64,000 bases of DNA, taken from a virus (taxonomy: Duplodnaviria > Heunggongvirae > Uroviricota > Caudoviricetes). The notes beneath the pieces were generated by a model that saw only the letters and a list, made by a program, of their open reading frames with translations, had not been told where the DNA came from and did no database searches. The position numbers were made by a program, and so were the translations under genes. The stretch covers positions 106,256 to 170,255 of the IMG/VR virus record IMGVR_UViG_3300023184_000031. One strand, 5' to 3'. The stretch's first letter is position 1, and the number at the start of each line of letters is the position of its first letter. Of this stretch, positions 2,789 to 39,062 are shown one piece after another.

Positions 2789-3475
2789 ATGACTAGTATA
2801 TACGCTTTATCAAAAGAAAATTATATATTCTATATAGGAAAAACAATTAATGTACATAGTAGATTATATGAACATAAACAAAAGTATGGATCTAATATAG
2901 AAATAATAATATTAGATGAAGTAGAAGATAATAAATGGATGTTTTGGGAAAAATATTATATTTCATTGTTTAAAAGTTGGGGTTACATCTTAAAAAATAA
3001 AAATGATGGTGGTGGTGGAACAACACGAGGTACACTCCAAAAATCTCAAAAACTAAAAAAATCAAAACATAAACCTATTTTGCAATATGATTTACAAGGT
3101 AACTTTATTAGAGAATGGGAAAGTAGTAAACAAGTAGCGGACGAATTACAATTAACTAATTCTAGTGGAATAACTTCAGTTTTAAAAAACCATAGTCCTA
3201 CTGCTTATAAAAGCATATGGAAATATAAAACAGAAAATTATCCGTTTAAAATAAATCCTCCTCAATATTGGGAAAATAATTTAATACCTGTACTTCAATA
3301 TGATTTGCAAGGTAATCTAATAAAAGAATGGAGGAGCGGCAAAGAAGCTTCCTTATATTTAAATATAAATAAACAAAGCATATGCAATACTCTAAAAAAC
3401 AGAGCAAAGTCAGCATGTGGATATGTTTGGAAATATAAAAAAAGGAGGCATTATCTACCAGTCAATTTATTATGA
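2789..3475 (+). mobile_element. Free-standing GIY-YIG homing endonuclease with two NUMOD/IENR-like DNA-binding repeats.
   Basis: N-terminal 'IYALSKENYIFYIGKTINVHSRLYEHK' is a GIY-x10-YIG motif. Two C-terminal repeats 'ILQYDLQGNxIxEWxSxK' follow. The 3' end overlaps the DNA polymerase ORF start by ~59 nt. Confidence 0.8.
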
Positions 3476-6032
3476 TCGATCTACCTACACCTATCATCTA
3501 CGCGATGATGAAAAAGGCTGGTTAGATTTCAAATACACCCCCGAACTATACCAAATAGTACCTAATGGCCCATTAGAGACATTAGATGGTAAACGCGCTA
3601 AACCAGTCAACAAATACGAATGGCGCGACACTTCCCTATACGAACAAGACGTTGATAAATGTACACGCGTACTGATTGACCTATACAAGGATAGTGATGA
3701 AGGTCCTAAACAACACAACATAGTTTATTTTGATATTGAGTGTGAAATTGGTGGAACACTAACAGCTGATTATATCAAATCAGCACCCATGAAGATGACA
3801 TCAGTAGCACTGTATGATAATACAATGCAAAAATGGTATTGTCTAATATTGGATGAAAAGAACCAAATAACACCAGTAACAACCGATTCACAAGAGATAA
3901 GACGCTTCAATACAGAAGCTGATATGTTACTTGATTTCCTCAATCTATGGGAATATATAGACCCAACCATCATCTCAGGATGGAATAGTGGATTCTTCGA
4001 TGTACCATACACTTACTATAGAATGTGTAATGTATTAGGTAAAGACCAAGCAATTAGACTATCACCACTACGTAAATTAAATTTCACTGATTGGGATCAA
4101 TCACAACCAATAGAGCTAGGTGGTATTAATCATTTGGATTATATGTTACTATTTAAAAAGTACATTGTAAAACAAGAACCATCATACAAATTAAATGACA
4201 TAGGTGAGAAATATGTTAAATTAGGTAAGATAGAATATGAAGGCTCATTAGATAAACTATTCCAAACCGACATAAATAAATTCATTCAGTATAATCTACG
4301 TGACGTTGAGATTATTATTGAATTAGAGAAGAAATTAAAATTCATTGATCTAACAGTCGCTATCTGTCATTTATGTCACGTACCATACGAGCAAATCTAC
4401 CTATCAACAGTATTAAATGATGGAGCTATATTAACATATCTCAAACGCCAAGATATAGTATCACCAAACAAACCAACAACAATAAATCCATCACTAAAAG
4501 AATCTACTAGTGATGATTATGCTGGTGGCTACCTTAAAGACCCAATACCAGGACTATATCAATGGGTTATTGATTTGGACTTTACATCACTATATCCCTC
4601 AATCATTCGCTCGCTCAATATTGGTATTGAAACATTAGTAGGTCGTATTGTTAATACAGGTAAATATGATAACCAATGGTCATATGAAGAGCTACTTGAC
4701 ATGGATCCTAATAAAATGGTTACTATTGAGAAGCTAAATGAGAACTTCACTACATCCAGAACACAGGTTACTGTAAGTAAGATAGTAAAGATGATAGAGA
4801 ACAATAAATGGATTACAGCAGCGTCAGGAGCTATATTCAGAACAGATAAATCATCAGTAGTGTGTGAAGTATTAACTGATTGGTTCAATAAACGTAAGCA
4901 ATACAAGAAACTAATGTCTGAAGCATATAAGAAAGGAGATACTACATTAGGTGAGTATTATAACAGACTACAACACGCTTATAAGATCAAATTAAATGAC
5001 GTTTATGGCTGCTACGCTATCAATAGTTGGCGCTATACAGATGGACATAAAATGATATCATCTGCCATTACATTAACTGGACAACGCCTACTACAAGAGA
5101 GTATAATCAATATGAATAGGCATATAAACAGCCTATTAAAAACGGATAAAGACTATATTATAACATCCGACACAGATTCGCTATTCATACAAGTAAAAGA
5201 TATATTAGTTTCTAAAGGCGTTGATTTAACCGATAAAGAAGCATGTATTAAAGCAACACTAGAGATAGCATCTGAACTACAGGAAATAGCAAATATCTTC
5301 ATAGGTGAATTTGCAAAGAAATCATTTAATATACCAGGTGATCGTGAGCATTATTTCGAATTAAAGCAAGAAGTAGTAATTGAACGTAGTTATCATTCAG
5401 GTAAACGTCGCTATGCTATGCTTATTGTAAATAAGGAAGGTGTAGCTACTGAAGAGATGATTATGATGGGTCTAGATTTGATGAAATCAAATATGCCTCC
5501 GCTATACAAAAAATTCGGACAGAATCTACTAAAAGAGATAATGTCAGGTAAACCCAAAGCGGAAGTAGATAAACTAATAGTAGATTTCAAATCACAGCTA
5601 GAGAAAATGTCATGGGTTGATCTAGCTAAACCAACAGGCGTTAAGCAAATCAATTCATACATTGCTAAGCGTCCTGCACCAGGTGAGATATTTAGTGAAT
5701 TTAAGCTAAAAGCACCTATCAATACTAAAGCAGCAGTATACTATAATGATCTACTAAAATTCAAGAAATTGGATAAGAAGTACACAAGATTCACAGAAGG
5801 CGATAAGATGAAATATGTATCGTTGCGGCCAAATCCATTTAATATTGACGTAATAGGCTTTAAAGGTATTGATGATCCTGAATTTATCACTGAATTTATT
5901 GACAAATATGTAGATAGAGAAGATGCATTTAACTCGGTATTATTGAATAAATTAACAGGCGTTTACGAAGACATTAAGTGGGATTTCCCGGTTTTGAACG
6001 CAAAGATTAATAAATTCTTTAAATTCCATTAA
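3417..6032 (+). CDS. Family-B DNA polymerase.
   Basis: Exo I 'YFDIECE'. YAGGY. Motif A 'DLDFTSLYPSII'. Motif C 'ITSDTDSLF'. KKRY-like 'GKRRYA'. The true start may be 3417 or 3423. Confidence 0.9.
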   Translation: MDMFGNIKKGGIIYQSIYYDRSTYTYHLRDDEKGWLDFKYTPELYQIVPNGPLETLDGKRAKPVNKYEWRDTSLYEQDVDKCTRVLIDLYKDSDEGPKQHNIVYFDIECEIGGTLTADYIKSAPMKMTSVALYDNTMQKWYCLILDEKNQITPVTTDSQEIRRFNTEADMLLDFLNLWEYIDPTIISGWNSGFFDVPYTYYRMCNVLGKDQAIRLSPLRKLNFTDWDQSQPIELGGINHLDYMLLFKKYIVKQEPSYKLNDIGEKYVKLGKIEYEGSLDKLFQTDINKFIQYNLRDVEIIIELEKKLKFIDLTVAICHLCHVPYEQIYLSTVLNDGAILTYLKRQDIVSPNKPTTINPSLKESTSDDYAGGYLKDPIPGLYQWVIDLDFTSLYPSIIRSLNIGIETLVGRIVNTGKYDNQWSYEELLDMDPNKMVTIEKLNENFTTSRTQVTVSKIVKMIENNKWITAASGAIFRTDKSSVVCEVLTDWFNKRKQYKKLMSEAYKKGDTTLGEYYNRLQHAYKIKLNDVYGCYAINSWRYTDGHKMISSAITLTGQRLLQESIINMNRHINSLLKTDKDYIITSDTDSLFIQVKDILVSKGVDLTDKEACIKATLEIASELQEIANIFIGEFAKKSFNIPGDREHYFELKQEVVIERSYHSGKRRYAMLIVNKEGVATEEMIMMGLDLMKSNMPPLYKKFGQNLLKEIMSGKPKAEVDKLIVDFKSQLEKMSWVDLAKPTGVKQINSYIAKRPAPGEIFSEFKLKAPINTKAAVYYNDLLKFKKLDKKYTRFTEGDKMKYVSLRPNPFNIDVIGFKGIDDPEFITEFIDKYVDREDAFNSVLLNKLTGVYEDIKWDFPVLNAKINKFFKFH

Positions 6033-7853: not shown

Positions 7854-8024
7854 ATGGAAAACATTATTGTAGAAATTAAAGTAACAAATGAAAAAGGAAA
7901 AAGCGACACAGTTTCATTTCCTTATGATGTTTATGTTGGTATGAAAGAAAATAATAACATAAATATGGTAGATGATTTATTAAGTGGTTTAATTGAAAAA
8001 CTAAAACAAAAAGATAAAAAATGA
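7854..8024 (+). CDS. Small hypothetical protein, 56 aa.
   Basis: ORF MENIIVEIKVTNEKGKSDTV... Its TGA stop overlaps the groEL ATG (ATGA), suggesting translational coupling. Below the ORF-track size cut-off. Confidence 0.35.
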   Translation: MENIIVEIKVTNEKGKSDTVSFPYDVYVGMKENNNINMVDDLLSGLIEKLKQKDKK

Positions 8025-9655
8025 GTAAAATAATCAGTTTTAACAGAGATGCTAAAGAAAAATTGAAAGTCGGTATTGACAAGGTCAATAACGCAGTATC
8101 AGTAACAATGGGACCATTTGGTCGTAACGTATTGATTGAAAAAGAACACGGACAAGTAATATCAACTAAAGATGGTGTTACAGTAGCTAAAACAGTAGTA
8201 TTGGAAGATCCAATCGAAAACATGGCCGCTACCGTAATTAAACAAGCAGCAGAAAAAACAGTAGATGCAGCCGGTGATGGTACAACAACATCAACAGTAT
8301 TAGCACATTCAATTGCAACACAAGCATTAGAGGCAACATCGTATGCATCAACAAATGCAACGCAAGTAAAGAAAGGCATTGAATCAGCTGTAAAAACAGT
8401 AGTAGCAGAATTAAAAAGAATGTCTGTTCCGGTATCTGATGAAACACAAATCAGACAGATTGCTACATTATCCGCTAACGGCGATGCTGAAATTGGTGAA
8501 TTAGTAGCCACAGCTATTGATAAAGTAGGAAGAGATGGAGTAGTAACAGTAGAAGAGTCGCGTACTGGGGAAACTAGTTTAGAAGTAGTAGAGGGTATGC
8601 AGTTTGAAAGAGGATATAAGTCACCATACATGGTTACAGACAACAATACCATGACAGCAGTATTGGATAATCCATTATTATTGCTTGTAGATGGTAGAGT
8701 ATCTTCTATTAAGGAATTATTGCCTTTACTTGAAGCAGTATCACAAGAAAATAAATCATTATTGATTGTAGCTGAAGATATTGAAGGGGAAGCATTAGCA
8801 GCATTGATTGTAAATAAAATGAGAGGTATTTTGAAGGTAGCTGCTGTTAAAGCACCTGACTTTGGAGAACGTAGAACATTAATTTTGGAAGATATTGCAA
8901 CGCTAACAGGTGGAACAGTAGTATCACACCAAAAAGGTATGAAGCTAGATAAATTCAATAAAGATTGGTTCGGTGAAGCTCGTACTGTAACAGTAGGTAA
9001 AGATACAACTACTATTGTTGATGGTAAAGGTGAAACTACAGCTATTGAATCTCGTATTATGGAATTAAAATCACAAATCGACAATTCAAATTCACCATAC
9101 GAAATTGAAAAGCTACAAGAGCGCTTATCTAAAATGATTGGTGGAGTAGCTATTATCAATGTAGGTGGTGGAACAGAGATCGAAATGAAAGAGAAGAAAG
9201 ACAGATTGGATGATGCTTTACAAGCAACTAAAGCTGCTCTTGATGAAGGTATCTTACCAGGTGCTGGTGTAGCATTATTACATGCTAGAGAAGCTATTAG
9301 CTATATTAAAACAGATGGTGAAGACTTTAATAAAGGTAAACGTATCGTACAAAATGCATGTATGTCTCCATTTGCACAAATTCTAACTAACGCTGGTGAA
9401 AATCACTATGAGTGGTTAATGCAATTGAAAGACCATAATGAAGATTCATCTTTAGTACCTAATATTGAAGAAGAAATATTAACAGACGCTTATACCTCAG
9501 GTATCATCGATCCAACTAAAGTAGTACGTTCAGCACTTGAAAATGCAGCTGCAGCCGCAGTAACATTACTAATGACTGAATGCGTAATATATGAAAAACC
9601 ATCTGATAAGAAAGCAGACGCTGGAATGGATATGATGGGTGGAATGGGAATGTAA
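8021..9655 (+). CDS. groEL: Chaperonin GroEL (Cpn60).
   Basis: 'AAGDGTTTSTVLA'. 'GGGTEIEMKEKKDRLDDAL'. C-terminal 'GMDMMGGMGM' tail. 544 aa. Confidence 0.92.
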   Translation: MSKIISFNRDAKEKLKVGIDKVNNAVSVTMGPFGRNVLIEKEHGQVISTKDGVTVAKTVVLEDPIENMAATVIKQAAEKTVDAAGDGTTTSTVLAHSIATQALEATSYASTNATQVKKGIESAVKTVVAELKRMSVPVSDETQIRQIATLSANGDAEIGELVATAIDKVGRDGVVTVEESRTGETSLEVVEGMQFERGYKSPYMVTDNNTMTAVLDNPLLLLVDGRVSSIKELLPLLEAVSQENKSLLIVAEDIEGEALAALIVNKMRGILKVAAVKAPDFGERRTLILEDIATLTGGTVVSHQKGMKLDKFNKDWFGEARTVTVGKDTTTIVDGKGETTAIESRIMELKSQIDNSNSPYEIEKLQERLSKMIGGVAIINVGGGTEIEMKEKKDRLDDALQATKAALDEGILPGAGVALLHAREAISYIKTDGEDFNKGKRIVQNACMSPFAQILTNAGENHYEWLMQLKDHNEDSSLVPNIEEEILTDAYTSGIIDPTKVVRSALENAAAAAVTLLMTECVIYEKPSDKKADAGMDMMGGMGM

Positions 9656-37008: not shown

Positions 37009-37079
37009 TGTGATATGATGTAACGGTAACATTACAGATTTTGATTCTGTCCTTCCTGGTTCGAATCCAGGTGTCACAT
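37009..37079 (+). tRNA. tRNA-Gln(TTG).
   Basis: Acceptor tgtgata/tgtcaca. D-arm atgt-aacggta-acat. Anticodon stem acaga/tctgt with loop ttTTGat. T-arm cctgg-ttcgaat-ccagg. No CCA encoded. Confidence 0.75.
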
Positions 37080-37084
37080 CTAAT

Positions 37085-37311: not shown

Positions 37312-37384
37312 GCAGCCTTAGACGAGCGGTTAAGTCGTCTCCCTTTCACGGAGAAGATCATGGGTTCGAATCCCATAGGTTGTA
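37312..37384 (+). tRNA. tRNA-Glu(TTC).
   Basis: Acceptor gcagcct/aggttgt (with G-U pairs). Anticodon stem tctcc/ggaga with loop ctTTCac. T-arm atggg-ttcgaat-cccat. Confidence 0.65.
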
Positions 37385-37411
37385 CTTGTTTTCGAACCCT
37401 TTATATATTTA

Positions 37412-37816
37412 TTGCAAATGAATAATATGAAAATTTGTAGTAAATGTAAACAGGAAAAAGAATTAATTGAATTCAATAAACATCGCTATGGAGTTACATC
37501 ATGGTGCAAAGAATGTGTTAGAAGTAGAAGTAAACAACACTATGAAGAAAATGGTATATCTTTAAAAGAGAAGAAAAAACTATACATTCAGCAACGAAGA
37601 GAGTGGTTTAATGAATTTAAAAAAACATTAAAATGTATTAAATGTGGTGAAAACCATATAGCGTGTTTAGACTTTCATCACCGTGATCCTAAACAAAAAG
37701 AATTTAGTATTGCTGGGGCTGTAAGCCATTCAAACAAAGAAAAAGTGATTAAGGAATTAGAAAAATGTGATGTTTTATGTGCTAATTGCCATAGGAAGCA
37801 TCATTACGAAGAATAA
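37412..37816 (+). mobile_element. HNH homing endonuclease.
   Basis: N-terminal 'CSKCKQ...WCKECV' zinc finger. 'LDFHHRDPKQK...NKEKVIKELEKCDVLCANCHRKHH' HNH motif. Lies between tRNA and tmRNA genes. Confidence 0.8.
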
Positions 37817-37823
37817 AATATTT

Positions 37824-38144
37824 ATGGTTATGGCATGTCATTGTTTATACTTAAAAGATCAACGCGAATTCTTCGAATTAATGAAGAAGCGAGATTCTGA
37901 CTTAGTATTGAAAATGGTTAAGTGCGTATTAAGTGCTACTAAGCGAAATAAAACGAAAATAGATATATTCGATATTTCATTCAAGGATATGAGTTCAATG
38001 TTATTTACGATTGAAAAATCACAATATAACGACATGTTAAGTAATTGTATGGATGATCTTATCAAAATAGAAGAATATGAGTTATGTGCTGAAATAAAGA
38101 AGTTAATAGATAAAAAAACTAGAAAGAAAAAAGAAGTTCTTTAA
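37824..38144 (+). CDS. Hypothetical protein.
   Basis: ORF (listed as 37767..38144). Start trimmed to MVMACH so it does not overlap the HNH gene. Confidence 0.4.
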   Translation: MVMACHCLYLKDQREFFELMKKRDSDLVLKMVKCVLSATKRNKTKIDIFDISFKDMSSMLFTIEKSQYNDMLSNCMDDLIKIEEYELCAEIKKLIDKKTRKKKEVL

Positions 38145-38150
38145 AATATG

Positions 38151-38588
38151 GGGGTGCCTTGGAATTGCTCCGAATCAAAGGGTAGTATTACATGTAGTGA
38201 GATGGTTCTAACTCACTTAAATCAATGGGCAAACAATTAAACGACAACTCTGAATTATCAGATTGGACCTTCGATGATGCTATGGCATTCATTGGAGCTG
38301 ACGAGTACGCTTTAGCGGCCTAGTCACCGGGGCAGCTGATAGCCTTGCAACAGAACAGCAGCGAGTCGTACGCTACAGAGACGGCATCCGGACGCATATT
38401 GTGAGCCGTGGCAAACCGTTTTTCCTGTTTTCTCAAAACATGATGGTGGAGCCGGTGATTATCACTGGTTAGTTCCCTACGGTGCAGAATGTGTTTGGGA
38501 TCTTTCCAGCACAAACAGTACTAAACATGTGAGACGTTAGTATTATTGCTTTTTTACGGAAACACGGGTTCGACTCCCGTCACCTCCA
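38151..38588 (+). ncRNA. ssrA: tmRNA (ssrA), complete, with tag reading frame ...GADEYALAA*.
   Basis: 5' GGGGGTG pairs with 3' CACCTCC+A as a 7-bp acceptor stem. T-arm acggg-ttcgact-cccgt. Internal ORF 'gga gct gac gag tac gct tta gcg gcc tag' translates to GADEYALAA-stop (38294-38323). Followed by a terminator. Confidence 0.8.
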
Positions 38589-38597
38589 CACTCAAGG

Positions 38598-38622
38598 CAA
38601 CCAGAAATGGTTGTCTTTTTTT
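38598..38622 (+). terminator. Rho-independent terminator.
   Basis: 'caacca-gaaa-tggttg' hairpin followed by 'tcttttttt'. Confidence 0.7.
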
Positions 38623-38645
38623 ATATATTTATATAAAATAATATT

Positions 38646-39062
38646 ATGGTAACAAGTCAACAAGCATTAAAGAAATACGGAGACCCAACACTAGAAAAAA
38701 GTATGATAGTTTGGGACGTTCCAACTAATTTAGAAATAGGAGTTATTCCTAAAAAATTATACTGCAACAAAGATATAGTTGCTCCATTAACTCAAGCATT
38801 TACTAATTTAATTAGTACAGGTAAAGTAAGTGAACTTAAAACATTCGATGGTTGCTTCAACATCAGAAAAAAGCGTGGACTTAGCTCAATGTCATTACAT
38901 AGCTGGGGTATAGCAATTGATGTTAATGCCGCTTGGAACCAATTAAATATGGTTCCTACACTAACACCAGGATTTGTAAAATGTTTTACAGACGCTGGAT
39001 TCGAATGGGGTGGTACCTGGACTAGAAAAGATGGTATGCATTTCCAGTTAGCAAAAATATAA
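38646..39062 (+). CDS. Endolysin, peptidase M15 family (L-Ala-D-Glu / D-Ala-D-Ala peptidase type).
   Basis: 'MSLHSWGIAIDVN' (H...D zinc ligands). 'GFEWGGTWTRKDGMHFQL'. 138 aa. Confidence 0.7.
   Translation: MVTSQQALKKYGDPTLEKSMIVWDVPTNLEIGVIPKKLYCNKDIVAPLTQAFTNLISTGKVSELKTFDGCFNIRKKRGLSSMSLHSWGIAIDVNAAWNQLNMVPTLTPGFVKCFTDAGFEWGGTWTRKDGMHFQLAKI

Follow-up and report, generated by a model that had tools for sequence, protein, structure and literature searches.

One-piece transfer-messenger RNA (tmRNA) of bacteria, as typified by the Escherichia coli molecule and the Rfam model RF00023, combines an acceptor stem with the pair G3:U70, a discriminator A, a T-arm and a long P2 helix with a pseudoknot (PK1) placed before a G-initial resume codon, a tag of about 10 codons closed by YALAA and a stop, a second pseudoknot (PK2) and a terminator. 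An encoded CCA is not a defining feature of a tmRNA gene, and the pseudoknots PK2 to PK4 are variable or replaceable among known tmRNAs. In this work we have analyzed a tmRNA gene at 38150-38588 of a phage contig, the window, by which we mean the whole stretch of 64,000 nucleotides under study (positions 106,256 to 170,255 of IMG/VR record IMGVR_UViG_3300023184_000031). Apart from the length of the tag, the gene has the features listed for the bacterial type; it is unlike that type in its tag of 26 codons, its unrecognisable PK3 and PK4, its unencoded CCA, its location in a phage and its RF00023 score of only 52.8 bits.

Phage tmRNAs are a known kind. They have been listed for the Bxz1-group mycobacteriophages and Bacillus phage G (Hudson et al. 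2014, PMC4131195), have been found in 402 of 18,146 phage genomes (2.3%, 133 unique; Buchholz et al. 2022, PMC9004378), occur in two pieces in OM43 phage Melnitz and in pelagimyophages (PMC9004378), and accompany SmpB in huge phages (Al-Shayeb et al. 2020, PMC7162821). The statement in a sequence-only reading of the window, made before this analysis, that only a handful of phages encode a full tmRNA is therefore out of date (PMC9004378, PMC7162821). The present gene resembles its predecessors in being complete, in lying beside tRNA genes in a large phage of lytic type and in having, like all of them, a putative function; it is unlike them in belonging to a separate sequence family, in being one-piece, in having no riboswitch and no nearby SmpB gene, and in its conserved long tag. 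A literature search found no paper analysing the tags of phage tmRNAs, phrases like 'phage tmRNA' and 'viral tmRNA' occurring in just four papers of the collection searched. The long conserved tag is the novel part of the system; a tmRNA family of this size that seems confined to phages, the conservation of a tag of 23-29 codons with a host-type end, and the presence of group I introns in the tmRNA T-loop among the relatives all appear to be new.

Identification and extent of the tmRNA gene

A search of the 64-kb window with RF00023 (gathering score 47 bits) gave an end-to-end match, model positions 1-374, at 38150-38591 (52.8 bits, E 6e-18). The two halves of the RNA are colinear, and the two-piece (permuted) order was not found. 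The sequence-only reading had placed the gene at 38151-38588; its end, the discriminator A, is exact and its start is one base late. Related viral loci from IMG/VR are referred to below by L numbers. The elements of the gene are as follows.

38150-38588, + strand: one-piece tmRNA gene of 439 nt, from G1 to the discriminator A, delimited with RF00023 and with homologues found by nhmmer and ARAGORN
38150-38156, + strand: 5′ strand of the acceptor stem, GGGGGUG, forming 7 bp, G3:U70 included, with CACCUCC at 38581-38587
38169-38195, + strand: 5′ strands of P2, pairing as 38169-38174/38555-38560, 38184-38189/38539-38544 and 38190-38195/38525-38530
38196-38230, + strand: pseudoknot PK1, with P3 at 38196-38201/38212-38217 and P4 at 38205-38208/38227-38230
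38243-38323, + strand: tag reading frame of 26 codons, DNSELSDWTFDDAMAFIGADEYALAA, with the resume codon GAC at 38243-38245 and the stop codon UAG at 38321-38323
38329-38359, + strand: pseudoknot PK2, with S1 at 38329-38333/38342-38346, S2 at 38335-38338/38356-38359 and the conserved linker GCAACAGAA
38359-38443, + strand: hypervariable segment of 85 nt, delimited by alignments and a chimera test
38444-38515, + strand: conserved central block in the place of PK3/PK4, running from UGGUGGAGCC through a hairpin at 38451-38468 to UACGGUGCAG
38564-38580, + strand: T-arm ACGGG/TTCGACT/CCCGT, with a 5-bp stem at 38564-38568/38576-38580 and a 7-nt loop UUCGACU
38588, + strand: discriminator A, read from the sequence
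38594-38624, + strand: intrinsic-terminator-like 10-bp stem-loop with a T-run, kept in L089 and L291

An anticodon arm is absent, and the P2 helix joins the tRNA-like domain to the remainder of the molecule. The D-loop region reads GGAAUUGCU, which differs from that of E. coli tmRNA, GGAUUCGAC. Much of what had been noticed from the letters alone stands: the 7-bp acceptor stem GGGGGTG/CACCTCC and the TTCGACT T-arm are present, a terminator (the 10-bp stem-loop and T-run at 38594-38624) follows the gene, and the tmRNA is complete and not a fragment, since both halves are present, the RF00023 match runs end to end, the helices covary in about 100 homologues and the tag is under coding constraint.

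The tmRNA family and its distribution

Homologues were collected from IMG/VR. Exact matching of the 3′ terminus of the tRNA-like domain gave the near-identical copies in L082 and L089, a search for the tag-flanking pattern added L107, L121 and L149, an 18-mer characteristic of the family (CTAARCRTGTGANACGTT) matched at least 119 viral stretches, and a six-member profile found 115 loci with 112 full-length matches on contigs of 4-250 kb. The distinct sequences number 99, i.e. 98 homologues and the window copy. RF00023 scores across the members span only 47-79 bits, so that the family is distant from the bacterial sequences behind the model. Since ARAGORN misses about one third of the members, the window copy included, surveys based on this program undercount such genes.

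Among deposited phage genomes (INPHARED, 50,697 records; blastn and megablast) the window tmRNA with 16 kb around it had no match, and two further family members matched only 45 nt of the tRNA-like domain of Chryseobacterium phage MA9V-3. In the genomes of 185,579 species of bacteria and archaea, one per species, the 18-mer CTAARCRTGTGANACGTT gave 22 hits, and none of these is a tmRNA of the family. Comparison of these sequences suggests a tmRNA family maintained in phages and not recently captured from a host, a conclusion that is provisional because one signature was used.

The phage MA9V-3 (PV245944.1, 22766-27777; L290/L322), a cultured phage of Flavobacteriales, carries a two-piece tmRNA whose tag of 17 residues, GNVIDINKYVAKLEVAA, is unrelated to the tags of the family described here; 4 kb upstream of this tmRNA lies a coding sequence of 279 amino acids annotated as ClpX in the deposited record.

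Conservation of the tag as a protein

The tag codons occupy 38243-38320 and are preceded by a single-stranded spacer of 12 nt, which separates PK1 from the resume codon GAC 38243; the resume context is UAAAC followed by GAC, and there is no start codon. The same resume point is picked by ARAGORN in the homologues and in the repaired window copy (see below). All 89 members with the context UAA[ACG][CUA] followed by G have a G-initial first codon (GAC in 53, GCA in 14, GUA in nine, GCU in eight and GGC in five). The tags are 23-29 codons long (median 24) and end in ALAA (40), AVAA (33) or similar, the pattern A-[LVI]-A-A closing 78 of 89. The window tag belongs to a subfamily of the form ...ELSxxTFxDxMxFVGAD(E)YA[LV]AA, in which a module of 17 residues has the consensus E-[LM]-S-x-[MFW]-T-F-[DE]-D-[LA]-M-[SA]-F-V-G-A-D. 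In a second subfamily the tags read ...RQEEGAxIINMAFANVxxALAA, in a third ...RVAEGEAILASIFGEVA[IV]AA, and there are a few further variants, for instance tags ending in ELELA.

In the window's subfamily (51 unique cores) the entropies at the three codon positions are 0.45, 0.20 and 0.96, and the median ratio of non-synonymous to synonymous substitution rates (dN/dS) is 0.147, compared with 3.2 and 2.0 out of frame. Because this set of 51 cores had been selected by a peptide motif, the calculation was repeated without the motif filter: over 570 pairs of tags of equal length the median dN/dS was 0.233, with dN < dS in 89%, against 1.19 and 32% for the same pairs read in the +2 frame. The window tag differs from that of L178 by five synonymous and one non-synonymous codon changes and from that of L082 by six and three, respectively. 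These substitution patterns indicate that the whole tag is under purifying selection at the protein level.

The sequence-only reading had described the tag as ...GADEYALAA; the end is correct and the frame gct gac gag tac gct tta gcg gcc TAG that it quoted is present (stop 38321-38323), but the tag has 26 codons, not about nine, and includes a conserved N-terminal extension of 17 residues. The last nine residues, GADEYALAA, follow the pattern G-x-x-x-YALAA, as does the native SsrA tag of Bacteroides, GETNYALAA, a sequence that acts there as a potent degron (bioRxiv 10.1101/2025.03.18.644028). Unlike the Bacteroides tag, that of the phage has 17 further conserved residues ahead of this end, and it therefore reads as an extension joined to a host-type degron. 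The extension is rich in aromatic and hydrophobic residues.

Other phage tmRNAs in IMG/VR likewise have tags of 16-29 residues. Among those with the same 23-nt 3′ end (L081-L101), instances of long tags are GNTNFWSLVNAGVSTPVTEELLAA, EDIMSILTSLTRGGVFAESAELAMAA and GKNIFGRIADKVRGLRRAFAGDNFALAVA; a long tag may be a general property of phage tmRNAs.

RNA structure and covariation

Covariation was scored on 46 aligned 'mini' sequences, all non-redundant and each made up of the first 96 nt and the last 73 nt of the RNA, with the helices P2a, P2c, P2d, P3, P4 and the T-arm (33 pairs) taken from the window copy. Paired cells made up 93.1%, against 36-52% when the partners were slid by 1-3 columns, and 27 of the 33 pairs showed changes on both sides. 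The covariation score was 0.634, compared with 0.06-0.135 for the slid partners and 0.20 for shuffled ones, and it was reached in none of 500 shuffles. The three P2 helices are 93-100% paired, with 13 of 18 pairs varying on both strands; in PK1 both-side changes affect five of six pairs of P3 and all four of P4; the T-arm helix is 99% paired and each of its five pairs covaries.

The acceptor stem (P1) was analyzed apart from this alignment (A3), because MAFFT misaligned the acceptor 5′ ends. Among 93 homologues it occurs in 17 distinct sequences and is fully paired in 92. The pairs G1:C, G2:C and G3:U, the last being the alanine-identity pair G3:U70, are invariant in all 93; positions 4-7 covary, position 5 being G:C, A:U, C:G or U:A. 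The discriminator is A in 92 of the 93. CCA is encoded in just 28 of these members, so the majority need its post-transcriptional addition.

PK2 was examined by a permutation test, in which the loop and the downstream strand scored 4.4 with their own partner and 3.22 ± 0.13 with permuted ones (maximum 3.52, 200 permutations); a test with fixed 5-mers had been dropped, having given 58 hits versus 47 in the control. Compensatory variants of PK2 include GCUG/CAGC, GUAAC/GUUAC, GCAAC/GUUGC and CCAAC/GUUGG. As to the pseudoknots whose absence was to count against the gene, PK1 covaries, PK2 is supported by the permutation test, and PK3 and PK4 could not be assigned. Segment 38359-38443 varies even among otherwise near-identical relatives. 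RNAalifold gave no consensus for the P5 region, and P5 is for this reason taken as weak and variable. Minimum-free-energy folding of the whole RNA was uninformative (z = -1.31).

Absence and interruption of the gene among relatives

Locus L291 has no tmRNA, although its flanks are 80-87% identical to the window at the nucleotide level. The boundaries of the gap lie no more than 1-2 nt from the ends of the mature RNA: L291 reads ttctttaaaat directly followed by aacagttactg, and L082 reads ...aaaatat[GGGGG...CCTCCAC]aacag... (sites compared: L291 14270-14300, window 38140-38595, L082 5077-5520). Downstream of the tmRNA, L082 has a separate open reading frame (ORF) of about 100 amino acids, which stands in place of the tmRNA in L291 and which the window lacks; the two elements behave as cassettes independent of each other.

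In three relatives a group I intron (RF00028, 85-98 bits) lies in the T-loop of the tmRNA (L204 1158-1385, L218 1555-1770, L260 7071-7287). A different T-loop insertion of about 190 nt, with no Rfam call, is found in L060 (about 5017-5209) and L223; the 3′ exon of L060, CGACTCCCGGCATCTCCA, restores a covarying acceptor stem, GGGGAUG/CAUCUCC. The tmRNA gene of Clostridium botulinum is likewise said to be interrupted by a T-loop group I intron, reportedly after Williams in 2002; the phage introns are like that case, but lie in phage contigs. The window copy is uninterrupted and free of introns.

Proposed function

We consider it highly probable, from the comparative evidence given above, that the gene encodes a functional phage tmRNA which would perform trans-translation with host factors and append a tag of 27 residues (the charged alanine and 26 encoded). 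The gene would be transcribed together with the two tRNAs and the small ORF upstream of it, or immediately after them, and transcription would terminate at 38594-38624. RNase P would cut at G1, the 3′ end would be trimmed to the discriminator and CCA would be added by the host enzyme. Host alanyl-tRNA synthetase (AlaRS) would charge the molecule with alanine through G3:U70, and host SmpB and EF-Tu would carry it to ribosomes that have stalled on a broken mRNA. A tblastn search for SmpB (query E. coli SmpB, validated against PDB 6q98) was negative both for the window and for 3.27 Mb of related loci; judging by established tmRNA biology, the phage presumably relies on the host for SmpB, AlaRS, RNase P and the CCA-adding enzyme. 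On the comparative evidence, translation would resume at GAC 38243 and append alanine and DNSELSDWTFDDAMAFIGADEYALAA, so that tagged proteins would end in ...AMAFIGADEYALAA, the last nine residues copying a native degron of the Bacteroidota type, G-x-x-x-YALAA. The purpose would most likely be to keep ribosome rescue running during infection, as the phage would do with its own tRNAs.

For the extension of 17 residues the closest precedent is the tag of Mycoplasma, the one long tag that has been studied well. According to the passage of PMC8403727 citing Gur and Sauer 2008, it has 27 residues, is rich in hydrophobic and aromatic ones and is believed to be an adaptation to Lon. As described there, it is like the phage tag in its unusual length and in the hydrophobic and aromatic enrichment ahead of an end of the YA-x-A type, and it offers a precedent for added protease specificity. 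It is unlike the phage tag in that Mycoplasma, having no ClpXP, changed the specificity, whereas the phage keeps a ClpX-type YALAA end and adds a module to it; on that description the resemblance is analogy and not homology. By this analogy the extension could serve as an additional recognition signal, read by a protease or adaptor distinct from the reader of YALAA; this is the role that we prefer, though we put it forward tentatively and consider it less likely than not. No firmer is the idea that it is a second address label, specified by the phage, which would reroute all proteins truncated in the course of infection to a different reader, or that the pool of tagged proteins would occupy host proteases. 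Readers of such a label may be Lon, the ClpP-like protease encoded by the phage or some adaptor.

Evidence against the proposed function and alternative explanations

Several observations speak against an intact gene working in this way. The RF00023 score lies just 5.8 bits over the threshold, and ARAGORN, whose calls in the window are tRNA-Gln(UUG) and tRNA-Glu(UUC) alone, misses the tmRNA; of the two scans that had been proposed as a check, only that with RF00023 thus recognised it. CCA is not encoded, the sequence reading ...CCUCC-A-CAC with ACAC directly after the stem, P2a has an A-A mismatch in the lineage of the window, and no promoter clearly above chance was found upstream. PK3 and PK4 could not be assigned in block 38444-38515, which has conserved hairpins, and the folding energy of the central region is no better than that of shuffled sequence. 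The absence of the tmRNA from L291 means that it is dispensable for the phage in some settings at least. Restriction to phages is read from one scan with an 18-nt signature; expression and charging are predicted from established tmRNA biology, and tagging from comparative evidence; a host among the Bacteroidota is a likelihood; and the role of the extension is drawn by analogy with the Lon-directed Mycoplasma tag as PMC8403727 presents it in the passage referred to.

The failure of ARAGORN was traced by domain swaps between the window copy and L082. When the 85-nt segment 38359-38443 was replaced by the 67-nt one of L082, ARAGORN detected the tmRNA with the tag DNSELSDWTFDDAMAFIGADEYALAA, so that the miss is due to this variable segment alone; single-base repairs (A15U, P2 G-to-A, addition of CCA) did not restore detection. 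The failure of ARAGORN, the unique 85-nt segment and the loss of the gene in a close relative could mark the window copy as a pseudogene in decay, in a family that is functional elsewhere. Every defining element of the gene is intact, however, its tag differs from those of relatives mostly by synonymous changes, and the segment whose exchange alone restores detection sits at the most length-variable site of the family, which makes decay very improbable. We give even less credence to a host-derived remnant, i.e. an attachment-site fragment or a recently captured ssrA carried passively. Integrases often target ssrA and 3′ fragments are common in phages (PMC9004378), and the gene, at 47% G+C, stands above its surroundings (31-37%); such elevation is, however, expected in a structured RNA, the neighbouring tRNA-Glu having 51%. 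The gene is also full length, about 100 viral homologues keep its structure and a tag under selection, no tmRNA with the 18-nt signature was found in the genomes of 185,579 species, and the family scores 47-79 bits with RF00023.

Two further alternatives accept a maintained molecule and dispute what it does. The RNA could be a decoy whose tRNA-like domain sequesters SmpB, EF-Tu or AlaRS of the host, so inhibiting trans-translation there, and whose tag is never translated; a tRNA-like domain alone strongly inhibits tmRNA, such a role has been proposed for the molecule of mycobacteriophage DS6A (Hudson et al. 2014, PMC4131195), and this domain is the best-conserved part here. Coding constraint over all 23-29 codons, conservation of the resume context and of the stop, and covariation in PK1, which positions the resume codon, leave a decoy very unlikely. 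Less remote, though still unlikely, is an active tmRNA with a non-degradative tag, which would stabilise, relocate or aggregate the fragments or jam host proteases and so spare phage proteins. The extension is conserved as a protein and rich in aromatic and hydrophobic residues, its connection with proteolysis being our inference, and other phage tmRNAs of IMG/VR have tags of 16-29 residues. The pattern A-[LVI]-A-A in 78 of 89 tags and the parallel of GADEYALAA with the degron GETNYALAA argue the other way, as retention of a canonical end is hard to explain unless degradation has been retained.

Were the extension an address label, the virus would be reprogramming the bacterial code of protein quality control, and the family would be an independent tmRNA lineage maintained by phages, hosting group I introns as well and behaving as a precise insertion/deletion cassette. 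A tag two to three times the host-type length, with extra residues conserved across about 100 phage contigs and an end like that of Bacteroidota, gives a concrete handle on the question why phages encode tmRNA, as the full tag can be compared with its nine-residue end. It turns the vague idea that phages manipulate trans-translation into definable experiments on phage-driven tagging: exchange of ALAA for ALDD in the tag (a DD-stabilised variant) would leave C-terminal DNSELSDWTFDDAMAFIGADEYALDD peptides as the trace of tagging.

Genomic context

The region of the window is low in G+C, about 31%. The tmRNA gene is placed in a phage genome with PolB, GroEL, HNH and M15 endolysin genes as neighbours, and the window also encodes glycosyltransferases and two HNH endonucleases. 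The lineage is one without a cultured close relative, and its host is likely a member of the Bacteroidota. Genes referred to are given below.

3417-6032: T4-type family B DNA polymerase (PolB), at most 34% identical to that of any deposited phage
8021-9655: phage GroEL, whose closest counterpart, 58% identical, is the GroEL of Flavobacterium phage vB_FspM_immuto
33896-34435, + strand: ClpP-like serine protease of 179 amino acids (Pfam CLP_protease, 89 bits)
37009-37080, + strand: tRNA-Gln(UUG), called by ARAGORN
37312-37385, + strand: tRNA-Glu(UUC), called by ARAGORN
37914-38144, + strand: ORF of 76 amino acids ending 5 nt before the tmRNA, with an EEYELCAEIKK (UVR-like) motif and a basic tail
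38646-39062: M15 peptidase (endolysin), with 324 relatives in IMG/VR

The best PDB matches of the ClpP-like protein are ClpP, with which it aligns at the catalytic Ser and His but has Glu where the catalytic Asp stands; it also lacks the N-terminal axial-loop region (the Pfam match begins at profile position 19). Its best PHROG label is 'head maturation protease'; the gene does not lie in a head module, but between a GT2 glycosyltransferase gene and small ORFs of no assigned function, about 4 kb upstream of the tmRNA. The sequence-only reading took the two together as a hint at manipulation of trans-translation and of tagging-dependent proteolysis. In IMG/VR 26 loci (within L291-L321) encode a relative of 45-92% identity and have enough downstream sequence, and in 24 of them a tmRNA of the family lies 3.4-9.4 kb further downstream in the same orientation; conversely, of the 35 tmRNA loci that extend 5 kb or more upstream, only nine have the ClpP-like gene there. 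Gene order across these loci indicates lineage synteny, which is compatible with a functional link without demonstrating one, so the ClpP connection stays a hint. The ORFs upstream of the ClpP-like gene were considered as ClpX and rejected, one being the GT2 glycosyltransferase and the other having no match.

The setting described earlier as a tRNA island with an HNH endonuclease is real in that tRNA and HNH genes adjoin the tmRNA; the 'island' consists of two tRNAs, Gln-UUG and Glu-UUC. The HNH endonuclease gene at 37412-37816 is an insertion relative to L291, where the bases corresponding to window positions 37386 and 37817 adjoin (13942/13943). Lying between tRNA-Glu and the small ORF, it resembles a homing endonuclease of the free-standing kind. 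For the small ORF, 37914-38144, neither Pfam nor PHROG gave a match. It is found before the tmRNA in about 17 of some 100 related loci, and as a general rule its role as a dedicated tmRNA partner was rejected on this count and for want of a family match. A second ORF family (YYMKVLCINGYE...) stands before the tmRNA in about 25 other loci.

The best 80 of the M15 endolysin loci (72-86% identical) were considered as relatives devoid of tmRNA and rejected, as they share no other gene with the window, L060 excepted; the lysis gene therefore appears widely exchanged. Between 13361 and 33870 runs a series of glycosyltransferase, HAD and nucleotidyl-transferase genes with a G+C content of 22-30%, below the rest of the window, which may be a sugar-modification cluster. 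The segment 40102-42217 encodes an OmpA-domain protein with PD40 repeats (474 amino acids) and an outer-membrane beta-barrel protein (178 amino acids), both resembling envelope proteins of the host.

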